Assembly: GCA_965660545.1 (NCBI GenBank)
Contig: CBFIAF010000020.1
Location: 97-64,096, forward strand
Source: Alphaproteobacteria bacterium
Lineage (GTDB): Bacteria; Pseudomonadota; Alphaproteobacteria; Bin95
DNA: 64,000 bases
Reading direction: 5' to 3'
Each line of letters opens with the position of its first letter. Positions within the stretch are counted from its first letter, which is position 1. A program made the position numbers and the translations under genes. Below the pieces are notes generated by a model. It did no database searches, was not told where the DNA came from, and saw only the letters and a program-made list of their open reading frames with translations. This document shows, piece after piece, positions 5,489 to 26,595 of this stretch.

Positions 5489-6670
5489 TTAAACAGTACG
5501 TTTTATCGGCATGGAAGTAATACCGCGAATGAAGTTGGAGTATAAGCGCTCCGGCGTTCCAGCCGATTCAAAACGCACGCCCCGCCCCAGAATTTTCTCC
5601 TGCAGGATACGCAGTTGCTATTCAGCCAGCCTATCGCCGACACAGCGATGAATGCCAGCACCAAACGACAAGTGCCGCCGCGCAATCTTTCGCTCAACGG
5701 AGAAGCGCTCCGGTGCCTCAAATACCGTCTCATCTGCATTGCCGGAGACGTAACACATCACGACCTTGTCGCCCTTGGCGATAGACTGTCCGTTAAACGT
5801 AGTATAGCTCAAAGGCCGTGCGACGCATATAGATCACCGGTGTTTGCCAGCGGATGCTTTCGGATACGAGTGTTGGGATAAGGCTGGCATCTGCGCGTGC
5901 GGCGTCGAAGGCTTACGGGAACTCTGCCATCGCCAGCAAGCCGCCACTCTTAGAATCCCCCATCGTGTCCTTCCCACCGACGATAAGTAGGAACAGCGTA
6001 CCAATAAATTCGGCCCGGTCCATATGCTTGATAGACGGGTCATTGGCCAGCATATTAACGACGTCGAAAACTTCCTGATCTTCGGCTCGCGCATCCCAAT
6101 AGGGCAGAAAAGCTTCGGCCATCTCCTGCAGCACGGCATAGCGCGCCGCTTTATCGGGAACAAGCGGGTTGGGGGCGTTCAGATTGGCGGTCGCAACGTC
6201 TGACCAATATATCAGCTCATGTCGGCGTTCTTAAGGTAAGTTGAACATGGTGGCCGGCATCATCGCCGTCAGGTCAACGGAGACTTTGGGGACCCAATCG
6301 AACGTCTCCCCAACTTGAATGCTGTCCTAAACGGCTGTAGTGCGCGCACGGATCATCGTCTCATATTCACGCAGGCTCGCGCGATTGGCGATGGGGGCGA
6401 CGGCGCGGCGGGGGCCGGTATGCTCTGGCGGGTCCATGGAAACGAACGCGGGGCGGTTATGCTCCAGCGAGATATCGTTCAACTATATGCAGCCAAGCCC
6501 TCCCTCCCTGGAGAAGACGCCGGGGTTCAGTTCGACTTCCATGATGTGCGCGTAGGATGAGACGGACCAGAACGGCCGCCCTATTTTTTTCGGCCCAACC
6601 GCATTCGGTGACAGATTGTGTGCATCTCAAAGCCGGACCAAAAAGGAGTTGCGTGATATCAGTAGGTTGT
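5489..6670 (-). pseudogene. CYP153-like cytochrome P450 (alkane hydroxylase family), multiply disrupted and 5'-truncated
   Basis: Pieces in three frames read as a P450: GRPFWSVSSYAHIMEV, MDPPEHTGPRR, I-helix [22 protein letters not shown], heme loop [15 protein letters not shown] and QLRILQEKIL. There is an in-frame TAG at 5618-5620, several other stops, and a frameshift at the T7 run 6584-6590. About 60-80 N-terminal codons are missing where the IS relic begins. Confidence 0.8.
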
Positions 6671-6699
6671 GATTCACCAGCTTTGTCAAGAAATGAAGG

Positions 6700-7566
6700 A
6701 TCGGATGGCCTGAAACGATACCGCTCGCGCGGAACATACGCGCAAGGCGGCTTGCCATCCAAGCGACATGCTGGATATCGAGTGGGCGCTGATAGCGCCG
6801 CTTCTGCCGGCAGCGAAGACTGGCGGAAGGTCTCGCAGCACAGACCTGCGCGAGGTGATGAACGCGATCCAGTACATCGGGTGAACGGGCTGCCAATGGT
6901 GGGCTTTGCCATAAGATTTCCCGCCGCTGACGATGGTGCAGGGGTATTTCTATGCTTGGCGTGACACTGGGCTGTTCCCGGTGATAAATCATCTTCTGAT
7001 GATCAGCGCACGGTAACTGGAGGGCCGCGAGGCCAGTCCTACGGCAGGCGTCATCGACAGCCAGAGCATGAAGCAGCCAAAAGTGGCAGTTTTTGTAGAT
7101 TCGATGCTGGGAAGAAGATCAAGAGCCGCAAGCGCCATATATTGACGGACACGCCCGGGCAGCTGTTGTTCGTGATCGTTTACGCCGCCAGCGTGCAAGA
7201 ACGCGACGGGGCATCAGGTCTGCTCAATGCCGTACGCCGCCGCTTCCCATGGCTGCACCATGCGTTCGCCGACAATGGATACCCCGGCGATAAGCTGCGC
7301 GCTGCGATCAAAGGTAACGGCGAATGGATAATTGAGATCATACGGGGTTCCAATGCCGCCAAGGGCTTCAAAGTCCTCCCCCGAAGATGCGTCGTCGAGC
7401 GCACCTTCGCCTGGCTCGGGCGTTGCCGTCGCCTCGCAAAAGACTGGAGCGCAGAATCGAAAGCTCAACCGCCTGGGCTTGGCTAGCAGGCCTACGCCTC
7501 ATGACCAGAAGAATCGCAAGATATTGCTATCAATCGTGAATTTTCGAGTTCTCGCTCTAAAACTAT
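6700..7566 (+). mobile_element. Degenerate IS5-family insertion sequence (transposase pseudogene)
   Basis: From about 6745 the sequence reads LDIEWALIAPLLP..TDLREVMNAIQYIG*TGCQW..VQGYFYAWRDTGL..LEGREASPTAGVIDSQS. After a frameshift it continues DAGKKIKSRKRHILTDT..RDGASGLL..FADNGYPGDKLR..VVERTFAWLGRCRRLAKDW. There are at least 3 in-frame stops and at least 1 frameshift. I could not identify inverted repeats, so the ends are approximate and the left end may be deleted. Confidence 0.75.
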
Positions 7567-8349: not shown

Positions 8350-9393
8350 ATGACTGAAGCCGTTTCAACGAAGGTATCTGCCCGGGCGCGTACGGTGCCG
8401 CAGGAATGGCTGGACCAGAACCGGGAGGAAGCGCTGGAGCCTGATCTGCCGATCATTGATCCGCACCATCACCTCTGGGATTTCCCGATGTCCCGCTATC
8501 AGTTGGATGAGATGCTGGCAGATGCGGGGGATGGGCATAATGTTCGCAAGACCGTATTCATCGAATGCACATCCCAGTGGCGCGCGGATGGGCCAGAGGA
8601 AATGCGGCCCGTTGGTGAAACCGAATACGCCAATGGCATCGCCGCCATGAGTGCGAGCGGCGACTATGGCGATTGCCGGGTCGCCGCAGGCATTGTCGGC
8701 TATGCGGACTTACGCCTTGGTGGTGCGGTTGAGGATGTGCTGCAAGCCCATGTGAACGCAGGCGGTGGGCGGTTCCGGGGCACACGACATTCAATCTCGT
8801 TTGATCCCTCCCCTGCCATCCACAACAGCCATGTCGGCGCACCGCCGGATATGTATCACGACCCAGCTTTCCAAGAAGGTTTCCGCACGCTTGGCCGCAT
8901 GGGCCTTTCGTTCGAAGCATGGCTCTACCACCCGCAATTGGATGATCTGGCGTTTCTGGTCGATGCCTTCCCAGACAACGCCATCGTCTTGAACCATGTG
9001 GGCGGCCCCCTCGGTGTTGGCCCCTACGAAGGCCGCCAGAAGGACTTATTCCCGGCCTGGAAAGCCGGTATCGAGAAAGTGGCTGCGGCAGGCGACAATG
9101 TTTGCGTGAAGCTTGGCGGACTTGGCATGCCGGTCAATGGTTTTGGCTTCCAGGACCGCCCAGTGCCGCCGTCATCCCAGGAACTGGCAGATACGTGGCG
9201 TCCCTATGTCAAAACTTGCATTGAGGCCTTTGGCCCGAACCGCTGCATGTTCGAGAGCAACTTCCCGGTCGATAAAGTCAGCGGCAGCTACCGCACGTAC
9301 TGGAACGCATTCAAACGACTCGCGGCTGGTGCCAGCGACACCGAAAAAGCTGCGATGTTCCATGACGTCGCGGCAAGGTTCTACAAGATTTAG
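8350..9393 (+). CDS. Amidohydrolase-2 family metal-dependent hydrolase
   Basis: 347 aa. PIIDPHHHLWD at the N-terminus and a distal NHVGGP..FESNFPVD are typical of the Amidohydro_2 TIM-barrel family. GAGGGGAG RBS lies upstream of the ATG. Confidence 0.8.
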   Translation: MTEAVSTKVSARARTVPQEWLDQNREEALEPDLPIIDPHHHLWDFPMSRYQLDEMLADAGDGHNVRKTVFIECTSQWRADGPEEMRPVGETEYANGIAAMSASGDYGDCRVAAGIVGYADLRLGGAVEDVLQAHVNAGGGRFRGTRHSISFDPSPAIHNSHVGAPPDMYHDPAFQEGFRTLGRMGLSFEAWLYHPQLDDLAFLVDAFPDNAIVLNHVGGPLGVGPYEGRQKDLFPAWKAGIEKVAAAGDNVCVKLGGLGMPVNGFGFQDRPVPPSSQELADTWRPYVKTCIEAFGPNRCMFESNFPVDKVSGSYRTYWNAFKRLAAGASDTEKAAMFHDVAARFYKI

Positions 9394-9397
9394 AAAT

Positions 9398-9484
9398 TGG
9401 TCCGGGCGGCCGGACTTGAACCGGCACTCGCTTACGCGAAACAGATTTTAAGTCTGTCGTGTCTACCGATTCCACCACGCCCGG
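9398..9484 (-). tRNA. tRNA-Leu (anticodon UAA)
   Basis: Hand-folded. Acceptor CCGGGCG pairs with CGCCCGG, followed by discriminator A and encoded CCA. Anticodon stem ACAGA/TCTGT carries loop CTTAAAA. There is a long variable arm and the T-arm is GCCGG-TTCAAGT-CCGGC. Total length 87 nt. Confidence 0.9.
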
Positions 9485-9527
9485 GTTCAGCTCGCCCGCG
9501 TCGTCAAAGGCGTGGGCGCGAGCGACC

Positions 9528-10331
9528 TTAGTGCAGGATCTGGCTTAAGAAAAGCTGTGTTCGCTCGTTGCGTGGATTGGAGAAGAATTCCTCCGGCGCG
9601 TTCTCTTCAACGATCTCTCCACCATCCATGAAAACCACGCGGTTAGCGACCTGACGGGCAAAGCCCATTTCATGGGTGACGCAGATCATCGTCATGCCGC
9701 TTCCGGCTAGATCGACCATAACATCCAGCACTTCCTTGATCATTTCAGGATCAAGCGCGGAGGTTGGCTCATCAAACAACATGATGCGCGGGTTCATGCA
9801 AAGCGCGCGCGCGATGGCGACGCGTTGCTGTTGTCCACCGGAAAGCTGGCCTGGAAACTTCGCCGCTTGCTCTGGAATTTTCACGCGCTCCAGATATTGC
9901 ATGGCAATTTCTTCGGCTTCGGCCTTCGGCTGCTTGCGCACCCAAAGCGGTGCCAGCGTGCAGTTTTCAAGCACGCTCAAATGTGGAAACAGGTTGAAGC
10001 TTTGGAACACCATGCCGACTTCAGAACGCACGCTATCAATGTTCTTAAGGTCACTGGTAAGTTCAACGCCATCAACAATAATATTGCCCTCCTGGTGCTC
10101 TTCCAAGCGGTTGATGCATCGCACCAGCGTTGATTTACCTGAGCCAGACGGCCCGCACACAACGATGCGTTCGCCGCGCTCAACGGCCATGTTGATATCT
10201 TTCAGAACGTGAAAATCACCGAACCACTTGTTCACGTTCCGCATTTCAATCGCTGTATCTTCAGCCACGCGCCAATTCTCCTGTTCCTTCCTGGCTCTCT
10301 CTACCGGAAAACCGTGAGCGGTATGCTTCAT
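9528..10331 (-). CDS. Polar amino-acid ABC transporter ATP-binding protein (GlnQ/AapP-like), orphan
   Basis: Walker [11 protein letters not shown]-loop, signature [15 protein letters not shown], Walker [12 protein letters not shown] and H-loop VTHEM are all present. No permease or binding-protein gene is adjacent. Confidence 0.88.
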
Positions 10332-10362
10332 ACGACGCTAGAAGGGCCAAAAACACAAGTCT

Positions 10363-11399
10363 TTATGCGGCTTCAACGTTGGATTTCGCCAGACCGGGCC
10401 AACATATGACGATTGCGGTCGGATCATCCGCGGGCTCAGCTTCACCGGCGAACGCTAGCACTGGCTTCACCAACGCATCCAACACTGCCGACGCGTCGCT
10501 CATACCGGCAACACCATCCAGCGCTTCATCCGTTCGCTCAATCCCAAAGAGCTCACCTGATATATTCTGCGCTTCAGTAACGCCGTCGGTTACTACCACT
10601 AAGACATCGCCGCGCTGCATCTGTGCCTGATCGCTAGGTAACGGGAATTCGTCCAACAGGCAAAGCGGCGGCCCGCCCTCCCCTTCAGGACGTTCCTGCG
10701 AGCCATCGGAATGGATCAGCCAAGGCTGCTCGTGACCAGCAGAACAGAATTCAAGCGCGCCCGTTTCCACATCCAGAATGCCGGCAAAGGCCGTGATGAA
10801 CATGGTGCCTGGATTATCGCGGGCGATTTCGCTGTTCGCTTGCTGAAAAACCGCACCAATGGACCCCATGTCTCGGAGTGCGGAGGGTTTACAAAGCGCC
10901 TTAGAGATCGCCATGAACAGGCTGGCCTCTGGGCCCCTTTGTCCGACACAACGCCGGCGAGGAAGAACAGGCGTTTATCATCCAACAGGAAGAAGTCATA
11001 TAGATCCCCGCCGACTGTCCCAGCGGGCTTACTGATGGCCGCGATGGAAAGGCGTTGCTCGTCTGGGAAGACGTCCGCCGCTTTAGGCAGAATACCCATC
11101 TGTATGCGTTTGGACGCCGCCATTTTACCATCGAGCCGCTGACTTGCAGCTGCCGCCAACCGCCGCTACCGCTCACTAAGCGTCATGGATGCAAGAAACG
11201 CCAGCACGCCCGCGACACCAATTGCCAAAGCGGGTGCTGCACCATCAAAAACCAGCTGGCCCCCAACATAAGCTGCTACGGCAGCCACAGGCGGTGAGAG
11301 TGCGAGGCCAACGCCGCCGAGAGCAGCCCATGCAAATTGCATCCTAGGCATGGCAAAGGCGGCAATGAGTGCCAATACCAATGTCACTGCGATTTCCAC
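10363..11399 (-). pseudogene. Membrane-anchored PP2C/SpoIIE-type phosphatase, disrupted
   Basis: A TM-rich 77-aa ORF ends at an in-frame TAG (11166-11168). The same frame continues into the PP2C core (GGDLYDFF..LAGVVSDKG). A roughly 1-nt frameshift near 10915-10930 leads into the C-terminal half (FITAFAGILD..CSAGHE..VVVTDGVTEA). Further degraded upstream sensor sequence may extend to about 11700. Confidence 0.7.
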
Positions 11400-11749
11400 T
11401 TGCTACGAATTGTCTGGGCAGGACAACAGCGCGCCGTCAAAAATTGCCTCAAGCGTTTGACGATGCGCTTCTAAGCCTGGGATCAATGCGTCCAGTGCAA
11501 AACACGCTCATCCAAACCGCCAGCGGCTGCATAGCCGACGAGGACAAGTTTGCCTTCAAGGCGAGCCGACTCATCATCAGTATCCATCAAGACAATGGCG
11601 GGTATTTGCTCGCTCTTATACCGTTCGCCCTACCATGGCCGTTCGCCAAGGCCAAGGCTGCTGGAATAGTCAAATTCGCTTGGCCGCATTGTAAAAACCG
11701 CCATTGCGGACTGTGTTGTCCGCCAAGTAGTGTCGGCGTTTACGTATTT

Positions 11750-12712
11750 ATGGATAGCGCCGAAACGCACATGCCATCCCCAAAAGCAGACTCTTCCCGC
11801 CCGGGTGACCGGCCCAGCCTGGCGATACTGCTGGTGCTGCTGGCGATGTTCCTTTTGGCGACGATGGACGCTATCGCCAAGCATCTGACAGAGAGCTTAG
11901 CGATCCCACAAATCCTAGGCGTGCGGTTTGCAATCTTCTTCTGTTTCGCACTTATGCTGGCCGCCCCGCGCGGTATTCGCGTAACGGTGCGATCCGAGCG
12001 GCCCCAGCTACAAATCTTACGCGGGCTCATCCTGATTACAGAGATGTCCTGCTTCATCTACGCCTTCAGCTTGATGCCCCTTTCGGACGTCCACGCCATC
12101 GCCGCCGTGTCGCCATTGATGGTGATGGCCATCGCCGCAATCTTCCTTGGTGAGCGCATTGGCCCCCGCCGCTGGATTGCGGTTGGCGTTGGCTTTGCCG
12201 GCGTGCTGATTATTATCCGGCCGGGCGGCAGCGTTTTTGACCCAATATCGTTTATCCCGCTTGGTGCCGCCTTCGGTTGGGCGGTATACCAAGCAATGCT
12301 GCGGATGGTGGCAGCGGGCGACTCACCACAAACGACGACGCTTTATACGGCAGGCGTCGGTATCATTGGCTTCAATCTGATTTCGCCGTTCGTATGGCGA
12401 CCGCCCGATCTAGAGACATGGATCGGGCTTGTCACGATCGGCATATTGGGCTCAATCGGGCATTTTATATTGCCCGTCGCCTATCGATTGGCACCCGCAT
12501 CCACCCTGCAACCCTACGCTTATATGATGCCGCTTTGGGCCGCCGTTATGGGCTGGCTGGTGTTCAATCACCTGCCAGACCGATGGACGATGATCGGCGG
12601 TGCTGTAATCATCGCCAGCGGCCTATATGCGCTCTACCGGGAACGCATTGCAGAGCGGCGGATCAAGCCTATTCCTCCAGCTGCGGCAAGCGATACCGAT
12701 CCTCAGGCTTGA
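11750..12712 (+). CDS. DMT-superfamily (EamA-like) membrane transporter
   Basis: The hydrophobic 10-helix pattern begins after MDSAETHMPS. The 127 codons upstream in the track ORF (11369-11749) are not membrane-like and overlap the phosphatase remnant. The start is set at ATG 11750. Confidence 0.7.
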   Translation: MDSAETHMPSPKADSSRPGDRPSLAILLVLLAMFLLATMDAIAKHLTESLAIPQILGVRFAIFFCFALMLAAPRGIRVTVRSERPQLQILRGLILITEMSCFIYAFSLMPLSDVHAIAAVSPLMVMAIAAIFLGERIGPRRWIAVGVGFAGVLIIIRPGGSVFDPISFIPLGAAFGWAVYQAMLRMVAAGDSPQTTTLYTAGVGIIGFNLISPFVWRPPDLETWIGLVTIGILGSIGHFILPVAYRLAPASTLQPYAYMMPLWAAVMGWLVFNHLPDRWTMIGGAVIIASGLYALYRERIAERRIKPIPPAAASDTDPQA

Positions 12713-13463
12713 GCCAGCCCCTGAAATTCGGCTTGCGCTTTTCAGCGAATGCAGCGCGGGATTCAATGAGATCGCTGAGATCACCATGGGCATGCAGGCG
12801 GGTTGCCAAATCATCAAATGCGGGCGTGATGCAGGGGCGCATCTGGCGCATGATATGCAGCGTGTTGACCCGCGCTGCTGGCGGCAAGCTCATCAAGTGT
12901 TCAGCCATTTTCATGGCCTCATCCATCAGGTCCGCCGTTGGAACCACACGGTTCAGGAAGCCGATTTCATGGAAGCGCTTCGCCGTGAACCGATAACCCA
13001 TCGCCATCTCAAGTGCCACGGGATAGGCCACATTTGCGATATGGCCATGATTATAACCGCCAAGTAGCCAACGCTTCGCTTCTGAAACCTCAAAAATGGC
13101 CGTATCTGCAGCGACGCGAAGGTCCGTGCCTTCGACCAGCATGAACCCGCCGCCCATGGCGAAACCGTTGATCGCGCCAATAATTGGCTTGCTGATTTTG
13201 CCGGCGCGGAACGGGTCTTCCATCGACAGCTTACGCCCGCCGGGCGTGTTGTCCTTCAGCGCCTCTTTCATATCTTCCCCCGCACAGAACCCGCGCCCGG
13301 AACCGGTGAAAATAGCGACCTCCAGATCTTTGCTGGCCTCAAATTCCGTCCAGGCTTCTGCCATGGCGCAGCGCATTTCATAGTTCAACGCATTCAGGCT
13401 TTCCGGCCTGTTCATCCGCATCACAAAGATTTGCCCGTGGGTTTCCGTCTCTAATACAGGCAT
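12669..13463 (-). CDS. Enoyl-CoA hydratase/isomerase (crotonase) family protein
   Basis: 264 aa. FTGSGRGFCAGEDM and INGFAMGGGFML are oxyanion-hole motifs. Its ATG overlaps the upstream gene's stop (ATGA at 13461-13465). Confidence 0.88.
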   Translation of the reverse strand: MPVLETETHGQIFVMRMNRPESLNALNYEMRCAMAEAWTEFEASKDLEVAIFTGSGRGFCAGEDMKEALKDNTPGGRKLSMEDPFRAGKISKPIIGAINGFAMGGGFMLVEGTDLRVAADTAIFEVSEAKRWLLGGYNHGHIANVAYPVALEMAMGYRFTAKRFHEIGFLNRVVPTADLMDEAMKMAEHLMSLPPAARVNTLHIMRQMRPCITPAFDDLATRLHAHGDLSDLIESRAAFAEKRKPNFRGWLKPEDRYRLPQLEE

Positions 13464-14134
13464 CAGGCTTTTCCTTTCATGCTCACATGATCATTGATCG
13501 CATCGTGCCAGGCTTCTGGGTCGAAGCCATGGGAGCCTGCGACGGTCTTAAATTGCACCGTGCAGTCAGCATCCAAAAGATACAAGCGCTCTGGCAAGGC
13601 GTTATAAGCGGCGTCGATTGTGTCTTCCATGTCATCTACGACCATCGGCATATTGAGCGCTAGTTTCAGCATGCATACTTCAGCTAGGGCGTCACGCTCA
13701 TCCTTGGTCGTCGGCGTATCGTAAATCACGTTATCTTCCAGATTGGCTTCGACCTGCCAGCCATCCGATGGATGCGCTTCTTGGATATAGACGCAGAGGA
13801 ATTGGACTTTATCTTGGAATTTTGCTGCGATTTCGTTAAGGCGCACGGCCTGTTTACGAAATGGCGGTCAGGTATAGGAGCCAAAAACCAAGCCAACCGG
13901 TTTACCGCGCATCAAAGATAGAGTCAGCGTCTCGCCCGTTGGCTTGCCACTAGGGGTTAACCGTTCTGCCGAGAAATCAGGCGCGATGTCGCCAACCTCG
14001 GGCGCAGCTTCTTCTCGCACTAAGCGACCGGCGCGCATCGCGGTATATTGCTCCGGCGTCATCATCATTCTCGCCCAGCGAGCTTTTGGGATATCTCGCC
14101 AGTCTGCCGGATAGCTAATTTCAGCCATGCCCAT
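13463..14134 (-). CDS. Deiodinase-like thioredoxin-fold protein with in-frame UGA (candidate selenocysteine) at the active site
   Basis: Track ORFs 13868-14155 and 13463-13846 are in the same frame, separated only by TGA 13868-13870. The read-through gives GKPVGLVFGSYT-U-PPFRKQAVRL..FLCVYIQEAHPSDGW..LPERLYLLD, the FGSxT[C/U]PPF family signature. There are no other lesions. The start is probably ATG 14134 or 14128, since 14155 is TTG. Confidence 0.7.
13831..13861 (-). promoter_or_regulatory. Candidate bacterial SECIS stem-loop
   Basis: The mRNA reads UGA-CCGCCA-UUUCGU-AAAC-AGGC-CGUGC-GCCU-UA-ACGAAA. This gives a 6-bp lower stem, an internal loop, a 4-bp upper stem, and a 5-nt apical loop containing GU that starts about 20 nt after the UGA. 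Confidence 0.45.
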
Positions 14135-14206
14135 GGTCCCTTCCCTGTTGTTCAACCTTCACCCTATCATGACCCCAGCACATCATTCGAGCCAGGAGCT
14201 AATTCC

Positions 14207-23848: not shown

Positions 23849-25399
23849 ATGCAGGCGATACTAAAGGCACCGGCATGGCTGCGAGACAGCCTGCTTGCCC
23901 TGATCGCTGGCCAAGCGGTTGCCTACTCATTTCCGCCATCACCGAACCCATACGGGATACTTCTGGGCCTTGCAGCAGTTACGTTCTATTTGGATGCGCG
24001 CTCTCCTGCGCGGGTATTTGGGATAGGCTGGCTGTTTGGCATTTCCTGGCACTTCGGCGCACTTAATTGGATTTCTCAAGCGTTTCTGGTGCCGATGCCG
24101 GGCATGGGTGCCTTTTCCTTATTGCCTGTCCTGGTGCTTGCCGGCGCGTTCGCTCTCTACATTGCACTGGCATTTTATCTGTGGCGGCGCTTTTGGCCGG
24201 GCGCAGATAAGCCTTCCGTTGCAGTACGGCTTGGGCTGGCAGGCGTTCTCAGCATCTCAGAATATGCGTATGGCCACCTATTCACAGGCTTTGCCTGGGA
24301 CCTAACGGCGCTGGCCTTCGTTGAAACCAGTCTGATCAATGTGGGGTCTGTTTTCGGAGTGTATGGCGTTGGTTTATTGGCGCTAGCTAGCGCTCTCGCC
24401 GCTTCAGGAGCCGTCCGCCGATGGACCATTCAGAAGCGCCTACCAAAGTGCGATGCAGCACTTGTCGCTGGCTCTGTCGCCTTCTTAGCCACTGGATTCC
24501 TCTATACGCAGTCGCCGTCAGAACCCGCAGCACCGGAAGCTGATGCCCTCATTGTTCGCATTGTTCAAGGGAACACACCGCAGCGCATAAAGTGGAAGCC
24601 AGAAAACCGCAGGATCATCTTCAATCGGCATGTTGCATTGTCCAGCAAAGAGAGTGCGCCAAAGCCAGACCTAATCGTTTGGCCAGAAACCGCGACACCG
24701 TTCAATGTCGCCGAAAGCGAAAAAGCGCTTGAGATCATCGGTGGATTGCTAGCCGAGAATGGTTTCGCAGTCATCGGAACGCCCATCCGCACACTATCAG
24801 CGGATCGCGAATACGATTATGCGAATGGCCTGCTCGCTATTGATAGCACAGGCAAGATCGCTGCCCGGTATGATAAACACCATCTGGTGCCATTCGGTGA
24901 ATTCATGCCGCTGGAGGCCTATCTGCCATTTGGTCGGCTTGTGCCAGGGCGAGGCTCGTTCACAGCCGGCCCAGGACCACTAACGATGAAACTTGGAAGC
25001 CTACCGAGTTTCAGCCCGCTGATTTGTTATGAGGTGATTTTCCCAGGCGCGGTCACTGGAGCAAGCCGCCCGGCCTTCCTTCTGAACATCACCAATGACG
25101 CATGGTATGGACAGAGCGCCGGTCCACATCAGCATCTGGCAATAACCCAGATGCGTGCAATTGAAGAAGGATTGCCGCTCGTTCGCGTTGCAAATACTGG
25201 AATTAGCGCTGTATATGATGCCTACGGCGTTGAGATCGCGCGCATTCCGCTGGAGCGAGCAGCCGCAATAGATGTCCGCCTGCCAGCGCCCAATCCGCCG
25301 ACCCTCTACGCCCTGTTTGGCGATGTGCTATACGGCCTGCTATTGGTTTTTGCATTGGCGTTAGGCCTTCTTTTCCGCCAGGAGGAATTGACCGAATGA
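23849..25399 (+). CDS. lnt: Apolipoprotein N-acyltransferase
   Basis: 516 aa. A multi-TM N-terminal half is followed by a CN-hydrolase domain (VWPE, KHHLVPFGE, ICYE..F). Confidence 0.9.
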   Translation: MQAILKAPAWLRDSLLALIAGQAVAYSFPPSPNPYGILLGLAAVTFYLDARSPARVFGIGWLFGISWHFGALNWISQAFLVPMPGMGAFSLLPVLVLAGAFALYIALAFYLWRRFWPGADKPSVAVRLGLAGVLSISEYAYGHLFTGFAWDLTALAFVETSLINVGSVFGVYGVGLLALASALAASGAVRRWTIQKRLPKCDAALVAGSVAFLATGFLYTQSPSEPAAPEADALIVRIVQGNTPQRIKWKPENRRIIFNRHVALSSKESAPKPDLIVWPETATPFNVAESEKALEIIGGLLAENGFAVIGTPIRTLSADREYDYANGLLAIDSTGKIAARYDKHHLVPFGEFMPLEAYLPFGRLVPGRGSFTAGPGPLTMKLGSLPSFSPLICYEVIFPGAVTGASRPAFLLNITNDAWYGQSAGPHQHLAITQMRAIEEGLPLVRVANTGISAVYDAYGVEIARIPLERAAAIDVRLPAPNPPTLYALFGDVLYGLLLVFALALGLLFRQEELTE

Positions 25400-26595
25400 C
25401 GATAGATCTAATCCGCCTCCGTGCGGAAACGCCCGGCGCTCAAAACGTCTTGCATTTCAACAACGCGGGGTCGGCCCTGCCGCCAAGCGTTGTTGTGGAC
25501 GCGCAGATCAACCACCTGCAACTCGAAGCCGCTATTGGCGGATATGAGGCGGCAAACCGGGAAAGCGCACGCGTCGCGGCGGTGTATGATTCAGTAGCGC
25601 GGCTGATTAACGCCAAGCCGCAGGAAATTGCTGTAGTTGAGAACGCAACAGTCGCCTGGGATATGGCATTCTATACAATTAAATTCATACCCGGTGACCG
25701 TATCCTGACGGCAGAGGCTGAATACGCAGCCAATTATGTAGCCTATCTACAGGTCGCAAAACGCACCGGTGCTGTTGTTGAGGTCATTCCATCTGCCCCA
25801 ACCGGCGAAACGTCGCCTGATGCGTTGGCGGCAATGATGGACGATCGGGTAAAGCTCGTTTCGATCACCCATGTGCCGACCAATGGCGGACTTGTGAACC
25901 CTGCTGCGATGATCGGCCAGATCGCCAAACGTCATGGCGCGCTTTACTTGCTCGACGCCTGTCAATCTGTCGGCCAAATGCCCGTTGATGTGGCAAAAAT
26001 CCAGTGCGATATGCTCTCCGCGACAGGGCGGAAATATCTGCGGGGACCGCGTGGCGTTGGCTTCCTGTACGTCCGCGAAAGCCTGATACCCACAATGGAA
26101 CCGCCGGTCATCGACCATTTCGCTGCCAATTGGACGGGCCCCGACAGCTATGAGCTTCGTAGTGATGCCCGGCGGTTTGAAAACTGGGAAAACAACTATG
26201 CTGCTAAGCTCGGTCTTGGTGCCGCGGTGGATTACGCCATGGATATTGGCATGGATGCGATTTGGGCGCGGATACGCCTGCTAGCAGAGGATCTTCGCCG
26301 TCGCCTGCGTGAAACACATGGCATTACCGTCCATGATATTGGCCAGGAACAAGGCGGCATTGTTACCTTCTCTAGCGACTATGAAGAAAGTGCGGAAATC
26401 AAACAGCGTCTTGCTGATCAGAAGATCAATATCAGTATCTCTGGGCCAAGCAGTACGCTTCTAGATTCAATGCGCCGAAACCTGCCGCCAATCTGCCGCG
26501 CATCCGTGCATTACTACAATGACGGGGCTGAGATTGACCGGCTAATAACGGCGCTAAGAGGCATGGCTGGACGCCTGCAATCGCCTGCTGCCTGA
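25396..26595 (+). CDS. Class V aminotransferase-fold PLP enzyme (cysteine desulfurase/SufS-like fold)
   Basis: 399 aa. THVPTNGG, LLDACQSVG and SATGRKYLRGPRG (candidate PLP Lys) are present. Its ATG overlaps the lnt stop (ATGA). Confidence 0.75.
   Translation: MTIDLIRLRAETPGAQNVLHFNNAGSALPPSVVVDAQINHLQLEAAIGGYEAANRESARVAAVYDSVARLINAKPQEIAVVENATVAWDMAFYTIKFIPGDRILTAEAEYAANYVAYLQVAKRTGAVVEVIPSAPTGETSPDALAAMMDDRVKLVSITHVPTNGGLVNPAAMIGQIAKRHGALYLLDACQSVGQMPVDVAKIQCDMLSATGRKYLRGPRGVGFLYVRESLIPTMEPPVIDHFAANWTGPDSYELRSDARRFENWENNYAAKLGLGAAVDYAMDIGMDAIWARIRLLAEDLRRRLRETHGITVHDIGQEQGGIVTFSSDYEESAEIKQRLADQKINISISGPSSTLLDSMRRNLPPICRASVHYYNDGAEIDRLITALRGMAGRLQSPAA

Follow-up and report, generated by a model that had tools for sequence, protein, structure and literature searches.

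The 64-kb window analysed here (the whole stretch of 64,000 nucleotides from contig CBFIAF010000020.1 of an Alphaproteobacteria bacterium) carries on its minus strand a deiodinase-like gene that gene callers present as two open reading frames (ORFs). An ORF of 95 amino acids (aa) with a TTG start (14155–13868) and one of 127 aa with a GTG start (13846–13463) share a single frame, and the only thing that divides them is the TGA at 13870–13868. Read through, the translation of 14155–13463 contains one stop, ...GKPVGLVFGSYT-stop-PPFRKQAVRLNEIAAKFQDKVQFLCVYIQEAHPSDGW...LPERLYLLD, or at greater length ...GKPVGLVFGSYT-stop-PPFRKQAVRLNE...VYIQEAHPSDGW...LPERLYLLD, and apart from this TGA neither a stop nor a frameshift interrupts the 221 codons of the frame. 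Very probably, the whole of 14128–13463 (minus) is one gene for a soluble deiodinase-like selenoprotein of ~25 kDa, in which codon 87, a UGA, encodes selenocysteine (Sec).

The true start is likely ATG 14128 (MAEISY...), 86 residues ahead of Sec, because it lies 8 nt past the purine-rich AAGGGA and because the orthologues begin with MAEISY, MAKISY or MVEISY (Table 1). The GTG at which the 127-aa ORF is annotated to begin encodes Val95 in the full-length protein; it is located within the apical loop of the hairpin described below, where it forms the GUG of the loop. These findings agree with the initial annotation of this DNA, which had described two ORFs in one frame split by a single TGA, a second start that is merely an internal GTG, and no further lesion. 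It had also proposed that the stop is coupled to the next gene by ATGA; the overlap is indeed present, but the junction reads TGATG (13465–13461), and the overlap comprises 1 nt.

Table 1 Features of the deiodinase-like locus, with positions in the window
Feature	Position	Strand	Remark
Complete deiodinase-like selenoprotein coding sequence (CDS)	13463..14128	-	221 codons + stop, ~25 kDa, predicted Sec at codon 87
Alternative start of the CDS	ATG 14134	-	
AAGGGA, purine-rich, putative ribosome-binding site for ATG 14128	14137..14142	-	Read from the sequence; function putative
In-frame UGA, predicted Sec codon, residue 87, motif FGSYT-U-PPFR	13868..13870	-	Homologous codon is TGA in relatives
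Hairpin resembling a selenocysteine insertion sequence (SECIS)	13830..13862	-	Begins 5 nt past the UGA
Hairpin lower stem AUUUCGU/ACGAAAU	13862-13856 with 13836-13830	-	
Hairpin upper stem AGGC/GCCU	13851-13848 with 13842-13839	-	
Hairpin apical loop CGUGC	13847-13843	-	Starts 20 nt past the UGA
Cys152 codon, motif AEVC, candidate resolving cysteine	13673..13675	-	65 residues past Sec; Cys in 79/81 aligned members
Cys189 codon TGC, specific to the window lineage	13562..13564	-	Gly (motif DADG) in 77/81 relatives
Crotonase/enoyl-CoA hydratase family gene (PF00378 ECH_1)	12669..13463	-	Downstream; ATG overlaps the selenoprotein stop by 1 nt

With Cys in place of the stop, the full protein matches the Pfam profile T4_deiodinase (PF00837) with E = 4e-26 and 92.2 bits (gathering score 27), spanning residues 17–207 and profile positions 46–227 of 237; weaker, overlapping Pfam matches are obtained for AhpC-TSA (PF00578, 37.8 bits), Thioredoxin_8 and Redoxin. 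The NCBIfam model NF038285 ('deiodinase_rel') scores 173.4 bits, which is below its curated cut-off of 250, and covers only positions 172–339 of 347. The sole sequence matches in the PDB are the catalytic cores of the mouse iodothyronine deiodinases (Dio) Dio3 (4tr3, E = 1.4e-17) and Dio2 (9h48, E = 1.2e-14), and the UGA aligns with the residue changed from Sec to Cys in these crystallised proteins. The PF00837 score, the alignment with Dio3 and Dio2 and the position of the UGA in FGSYT-U-PPF bear out the earlier assignment of the gene to the deiodinase-like thioredoxin-fold family. An AlphaFold2 model of the Cys homologue P0035, which is 45% identical to the window protein (predicted local distance difference test, pLDDT, 95.5), retrieves 4tr3 and 9h48 as the top Foldseek matches (target-normalised TM 0.76–0.77), followed by 2-Cys peroxiredoxins; judged from this homologue model, the protein is predicted to have a deiodinase-type fold, i.e., a thioredoxin/peroxiredoxin-like core with the Dio insertion.

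Residues S84, T86, U87, Y114, E117, H119 and W124 align with active-site residues of the deiodinases and are at least 95% conserved in 81 family members, and the flanking FGSYT and PPFR hardly vary. In the animal enzyme, the proton relay is assigned to Dio2 Ser127, Thr129, Tyr157, Glu160 and His162, plus Trp167 (PMC11592359). Apart from Cys152, none of the Cys residues of the window protein is conserved across the 81 aligned members, and Cys152 is proposed as the resolving residue. The N-terminus, MAEISYPADWRDIPKARWARMMMTPEQY..., is charged and helical and contains no hydrophobic span that could serve as a membrane anchor.

Conservation of the UGA was surveyed with one genome per GTDB species, and the figures given here refer to the best 80 species-representative loci (40–94% protein identity). 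Of these 80 loci, 77 have TGA as the codon that follows FGSYT and precedes PPF, as do L001–L003 (L and P numbers denote the loci and proteins of the survey), whereas three loci are Cys forms (L068 with TGT, L073 with TGC, and L056). All 12 closest relatives carry TGA, and the Cys forms are a distant minority. According to their labels, the metagenome-assembled genomes with TGA loci belong to Alphaproteobacteria, Rhodospirillaceae, Myxococcota, Opitutales, Terriglobia, Burkholderiales, Chloroflexota (Dehalococcoidia, SAR202) and Entotheonella.

In protein databases the family appears largely in truncated form. Most homologues (93% to ~40% identity) are called as proteins of 122–127 aa that match the C-terminal 55% of the query, and they are all cut at one shared place, starting just past the TGA codon. 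When the 127-aa part was compared by HMMER with 1.84 billion cluster representatives, 446 clusters were found at E ≤ 1e-10, and ~80 of the best 150 (clustered at 50% identity) start no more than a few residues away from the post-Sec position, as counted by eye; a widespread selenoprotein is thus systematically mis-called. Gene callers annotate two ORFs in every assembly, which taken at face value would describe a split enzyme made of two separate small proteins, one of 86 aa and one of 127 aa starting at GTG 13846. This is next to impossible: the break falls within the catalytic motif and would cost the enzyme its catalytic residue, the GTG sits in the conserved hairpin loop without a ribosome-binding site and codes for the Val that is conserved in QAVRLN, U and EAHP are 30 residues apart in every locus but one, and the Cys-form homologues are single chains.

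An exact-sequence lookup of the adjoining enoyl-CoA hydratase protein identified at least 24 contigs of public assemblies. Four of them, L084–L087, are at least 99.9% identical to the window over 10.5–20.8 kb, and their deiodinase-like gene is base-for-base the same, TGA included; since these are independent metagenome assemblies of the same strain, the TGA is not a sequencing error.

Substitution rates were calculated according to Nei and Gojobori. Between the window and L004 (94% aa identity), the 60 codons ahead of the TGA show a dS of 0.58 and a dN of 0.046 (dN/dS 0.08), and the 115 codons past it a dS of 0.41 and a dN of 0.015 (dN/dS 0.037); comparison with L001 and L005 gives dN/dS values of 0.05–0.08. 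With L005 and L001 as outgroups to polarise the differences, 23 synonymous and ~6 non-synonymous changes fall on the window's own branch. These rates show strong purifying selection on both halves of the gene, the window branch included.

The UGA is followed by a hairpin that folds as AUUUCGU-AAAC-AGGC-CGUGC-GCCU-UA-ACGAAAU with a minimum free energy of −13.2 to −13.4 kcal/mol; of 1000 dinucleotide-shuffled versions of the 42-nt piece, 2.4% fold equally well. The folding energy of the window sequence alone is weak evidence, and the comparative evidence is strong. In a gap-free alignment of 72-nt segments from 63 TGA loci, 97.5% of the cells of the upper stem (columns 25–29 with 35–39) are paired, and three of its five pairs show compensatory double changes: pair 25–39 (CG 39, AU 8, UG 5, UA 4, GC 1), pair 27–37 (GC 55, UA 5, AU 2) and pair 28–36 (GC 47, AU 6, UA 5, UG 3, GU 2), the last being paired in 63 of 63 sequences. 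The covariation score was reached by none of 500 shuffles, and in slid controls the pairing drops from 81% to 14–42%. The pairing of columns 28 and 36 is not a constraint at the protein level, because column 28 holds the first base of a codon for Ala, Thr or Ser and column 36 a synonymous third base of an Arg codon. The apical loop has the consensus (C/G)G(U/G)NN with an invariant G31, while the lower stem (columns 15–21 with 41–47) has 70% pairing without double changes. The hairpin is absent from the two of the three Cys-form loci that were checked (L068 and L073), where only 2–3 of the 5 upper-stem positions pair.

Sixteen loci of the Chloroflexota/Entotheonella type (L054, L058, L060, L064, L066, L069–L071, L074, L076 and L078–L083) carry a different hairpin, GCGCUC-AGUCU-GAGCGC, which lies 4–5 nt closer to the UGA, ~13–30 nt past the TGA; 12–16 of the 16 sequences are paired at each stem position, and the loop contains AG(U/G). 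The family thus appears to carry two SECIS registers, encoded by RAQSERM in the Chloroflexota type and by QAVRLN in the proteobacterial type. The numeric limits of bSECISearch are 16–37 nt and a stem of at least 4 bp. Qualitatively, the predicted element at 13862–13830 has the features of a bacterial SECIS, a hairpin just past the UGA with a small loop that contains G. A small apical loop with G right after the UGA serves to recognise bacterial SECIS elements, according to an early survey (PMC1088965).

The same comparisons bear on the null hypothesis of the initial annotation, a simple nonsense pseudogene in which an ancestral TGC (Cys) became TGA in this lineage and knocked out the gene. One base change from TGC or TGT does yield TGA, and homologues of the Cys form exist; nevertheless, such a knock-out is scarcely tenable in view of the prevalence of TGA across phyla and among all of the closest relatives, the purifying selection on both halves (dN/dS 0.04–0.08), the covarying hairpin that is specific to the TGA forms, and the identical independent assemblies, which counter an assembly artefact. 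As judged from these alignments, the TGA is ancestral and not a lesion. The orthologue alignment proposed in that annotation yielded TGA at nearly all loci, with a covarying hairpin; the hairpin it placed after the UGA is supported by its upper stem, its invariant loop G and the shuffling control, whereas its statement that most bacterial homologues carry Cys fails among the relatives found here.

Relatives also link the gene to the machinery for Sec incorporation. ARAGORN predicts a tRNA-Sec within ~4 kb of the gene in L027, L029, L042, L044, L046, L048 and L050, and the two ORFs between the deiodinase-like gene and the tRNA in L042 are selA (TIGR00474, 593 bits, cut-off 268) and selB (TIGR00475, 448 bits, cut-off 242). 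With the L042 proteins as tblastn queries, selA and selB were found beside the gene in eight loci, seven of which have the tRNA-Sec; they lie downstream on the same strand in seven loci and are divergent in L027. A selD gene was not seen in any flank. Together with TGA conservation, selection and the covarying hairpin, this linkage supports the proposal of the initial annotation that the UGA is decoded as Sec.

L042 has a second candidate selenoprotein gene, divergent from the deiodinase-like gene, at 9298–9780 (minus), adjoining 10001–14091. This peroxiredoxin/thioredoxin-like ORF reads ...ILFYRGHW-TGA-PYCRRQLVGFENE... and has a U-x-x-C motif; a gene related to YciW/AhpD lies beside it at 8720–9247. 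The peroxiredoxin/thioredoxin-like candidate, the deiodinase-like gene, selA, selB and tRNA-Sec make up a compact selenoprotein island in L042.

Alternatively, the UGA could be decoded as one of the standard amino acids, namely Trp, Cys or Gly, without selenium, through reassignment or near-cognate suppression. Cys would be chemically competent at the site, and one public gene call, the full-length protein P0028 (L088:973–1539) from the Joint Genome Institute, has Trp at the Sec position. The underlying DNA has TGA, and the Trp is a gene-calling artefact; the contig had apparently been called under a code in which TGA means Trp. An alternative code is rejected for the window because TGA is its commonest ordinary stop, closing 24 of the 52 ORFs of at least 150 aa, and the standard code applies in the host phyla. 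As the SECIS-like hairpin with its loop G and the adjacency of selA, selB and tRNA-Sec in relatives point specifically to Sec, a reading as a standard amino acid is very improbable.

Several observations weigh against the reading of the gene as a functional selenoprotein gene of this organism. None of selA, selB, selD and tRNA-Sec was found in the 64-kb window: the SelA and SelB proteins of L042 gave no tblastn match, a regular-expression search for the SelD motif gave nothing credible, and Pfam searches of the genes at 23.8–48 kb, together with precomputed Pfam matches for 2.7–23.5 kb, revealed housekeeping genes only and no sel genes. We therefore infer the Sec-decoding capacity of this organism from selection and from its relatives. 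The hairpin of the window lineage has only four upper-stem pairs, with a C25/U39 mismatch, the z-score of its single-sequence fold is modest (−1.6 when computed on the 81-nt piece), and Rfam gave no SECIS match, either for the whole window at the gathering threshold or for 13780–13900 at E values up to 10, the only match in those scans being one tRNA-Leu; moreover, the SECIS spacing and loop features were compared by hand. At the protein level, residue 189 is Cys at a nearly invariant Gly position, a change that maps to the window branch (polarised with L005 and L001) and is the same in all four near-identical assemblies. The equivalent of Dio2 His182, the second relay His, aligns to Thr and is not conserved, the clamp position (Dio3 Arg275, Dio2 Lys241) corresponds to Ala and varies within the family, and the distal Cys of the animal enzymes (Dio2 Cys205) aligns to Met, with Cys152 located ~7 residues earlier. 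Finally, a recent review reports no experimental evidence for any bacterial deiodinase-like member (PMC13188914).

Some of these points would fit a relic, that is, a member of a true selenoprotein family in a strain that has recently lost the Sec machinery or expression, such that the UGA terminates translation and yields an inactive fragment of 86 aa. The missing sel genes and tRNA-Sec in the window, the Gly-to-Cys change, the upper stem that is one pair short of the family consensus, and decayed genes elsewhere in the window (a frameshifted SpoIIE remnant and fragments of a P450 gene and an insertion sequence, IS) are all in line with such a loss. On the other hand, the ratio of synonymous to non-synonymous changes on the window's own branch is ~4:1 with most of the coding length past the UGA, dN/dS relative to L004 is 0.037 there, no second lesion has accumulated in the frame, and the hairpin and its loop G are intact. 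The loss would need to be very recent, and we consider a relic improbable.

Decoding of codon 87 as Sec is thus the strongly supported part of the mechanism that we propose for the selenoprotein. SelB loaded with Sec-tRNA(Sec) would bind the putative SECIS 5 nt downstream of the UGA, at the loop CGUGC with its conserved G. As the hairpin lies within the CDS, the codons for F-R...Q-A-V-R-L-N-E specify amino acids and at the same time form the RNA structure; and since the UGA is read as Sec with the SECIS in the CDS, standard gene callers split the gene into fragments of 86–88 aa and 127 aa. The protein would adopt the thioredoxin/peroxiredoxin-like fold of the animal deiodinases with the active-site set around Sec87 retained. 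The substrate attacked by the selenolate is probably an oxidising or halogenated compound; Cys152 may then resolve the oxidised selenium as a selenenyl-sulfide, and this bond would be reduced by a thiol system, thioredoxin or glutaredoxin.

The offset of ~7 residues between Cys152 and the animal distal Cys means that the animal mechanism is not simply transferable, and the lack of both the clamp and a membrane anchor makes the protein a member of PF00837 by homology and not an iodothyronine deiodinase by its substrate apparatus. Conservation of the deiodinase relay residues, together with the operon linkage, nevertheless leaves room for a speculative and rather unlikely reading, namely that the bacterial proteins are true reductive dehalogenases of iodinated or brominated aromatics and the evolutionary source of thyroid-hormone deiodination in animals, and that in some lineages the gene is the principal client of the Sec machinery, since it heads or abuts a dio-like–selA–selB–tRNA-Sec cluster. 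If this were true, the chemistry of the principal client would explain why such bacteria retain selenocysteine.

Bacterial deiodinase-like selenoproteins have been predicted before. Zhang, Fomenko and Gladyshev reported four Sec-containing sequences from the Sargasso Sea in 2005 (PMC1088965), and the Global Ocean Sampling (GOS) analysis of 2008 added 22 Sec and 21 Cys sequences (PMC2398784); reviews from 2022 and 2026 describe such families as known almost only through bioinformatics and with functions largely unknown (PMC9312934, PMC13188914). The initial annotation was right that the Sec-containing bacterial members had been predicted from marine metagenomes; the family has been established in catalogues of prokaryotic selenoproteins since 2005 (PMC1088965, PMC2398784, PMC13188914). 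The window locus is a further, mis-annotated member of this predicted family.

No essential difference from the prokaryotic deiodinase-like family was found. The window gene shares with it PF00837, Sec against Cys in homologues, a bacterial-type SECIS right after the UGA with a small G-containing loop, hosts that are marine or environmental uncultured bacteria, and a presumed redox function. The family motif is given as 'UxxC' in the reviews, whereas the window clade has U-P-P-F and lacks Cys at +3. Relative to the passages of the earlier family papers that were consulted, the present survey adds the dominance of Sec among the nearest species representatives (77/80), the location of the gene next to selA, selB and tRNA-Sec in eight genomes (tRNA-Sec in seven), and two hairpin registers, Proteobacteria versus Chloroflexota.

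Compared with animal Dio1–3 (4TR3, 9H48), the catalytic core is homologous, with Sec in FGS-x-T-U-PPF and the Dio-type insertion past EAHPSDGW (PMC11592359). However, the SECIS of the window gene lies in the coding region and that of the animal genes in the 3' untranslated region, the charged helical N-terminus replaces the N-terminal transmembrane anchor, and thyroid hormones are not anticipated as substrates of the window protein. Peroxiredoxins and other AhpC-TSA proteins (PF00578, including Sec-containing peroxiredoxin-like selenoproteins) share the thioredoxin-type fold, the redox residue at the N-terminus of helix 1, and a plausible cycle of Sec and resolving Cys. An identity as a peroxiredoxin was rejected: in place of P-x-x-x-T/S-x-x-C, the window protein has GS-Y-T-U with Thr directly before Sec, it possesses the deiodinase-type EAHPxDGW insertion, and the overlapping PF00578 match is far weaker than that of the deiodinase hidden Markov model. 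As in the SECIS elements of E. coli fdhF and fdnG, the hairpin lies inside the ORF, immediately 3' of the UGA and at a fixed distance from it, with a conserved loop G (G-U in most members); the sequences are unrelated, and the window stem is broken by an internal loop and not by the bulged U of fdhF.

Knowledge of Sec decoding itself is unchanged by this locus, and its significance lies in annotation and in the family. In the public assemblies examined, the gene is split into two 'hypothetical' ORFs and was once translated with Trp. The family has its active site in common with the enzymes by which animals control thyroid hormone. The survey yields a SECIS model supported by covariation and a conserved candidate resolving Cys, and the natural dio-like–selA–selB–tRNA-Sec cassettes would be convenient self-contained units for heterologous expression.

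The downstream crotonase gene, to which NCBIfam gives no specific assignment, is probably co-transcribed with the selenoprotein gene because of the 1-nt overlap. In L004, the closest relative at species level, ~1 kb (10652–11678) without counterpart in the window lies between the two genes, and the C-terminus of the L004 protein deviates (...DHVIGWS before the stop), such that an insertion or rearrangement is possible. In the other direction, the neighbours are a DUF1330 gene and a mandelate-racemase-family dehydratase-like gene, both divergent from the selenoprotein gene. When ORFs within 5 kb were clustered over all loci, the recurrent ones were selA/selB (8–9 loci), a short-chain dehydrogenase (11) and crotonase (8, mostly close relatives); as no other neighbour recurs broadly, the context reveals no pathway.

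A scan of the window for TGA codons between two long ORFs of the same frame returned only the deiodinase-like gene as a candidate, the other TGA-split cases being neighbouring genes or non-coding frames. A split creatinase/M24 peptidase gene next to L002 was considered as a second selenoprotein gene and rejected, since it is broken by frame changes and not by a single TGA. At 25396–26595 (plus), the window contains a class-V aminotransferase of the SufS/cysteine-desulfurase type that scores under every NCBIfam cut-off; it matches the selenocysteine lyase SclA weakly and might mobilise sulfur or selenium.

Elsewhere in the window, a remnant of a SpoIIE/PP2C phosphatase gene lies at 10363–11176 (minus), with an ORF at 10716–11159 (motif GGDLYDF) and a SpoIIE-domain ORF at 10363–10914 in different frames. 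The remnant lacks the CHASE2 sensor part, which is present in the 705-aa orthologue of L001, and the STAS and metallo-beta-lactamase genes next to that orthologue are missing here; it looks like a genuine decayed gene. The region at ~5500–7500 has a low coding density and contains gene fragments, among them an ORF at 5618–5812 (minus) with a cytochrome-P450-type heme motif and an ORF at 7142–7486 (plus) that resembles the C-terminus of an IS5-family transposase, ...ERTFAWLGRCRRLAKDWS, both recognised by eye; this region is probably a P450 pseudogene beside an IS remnant.

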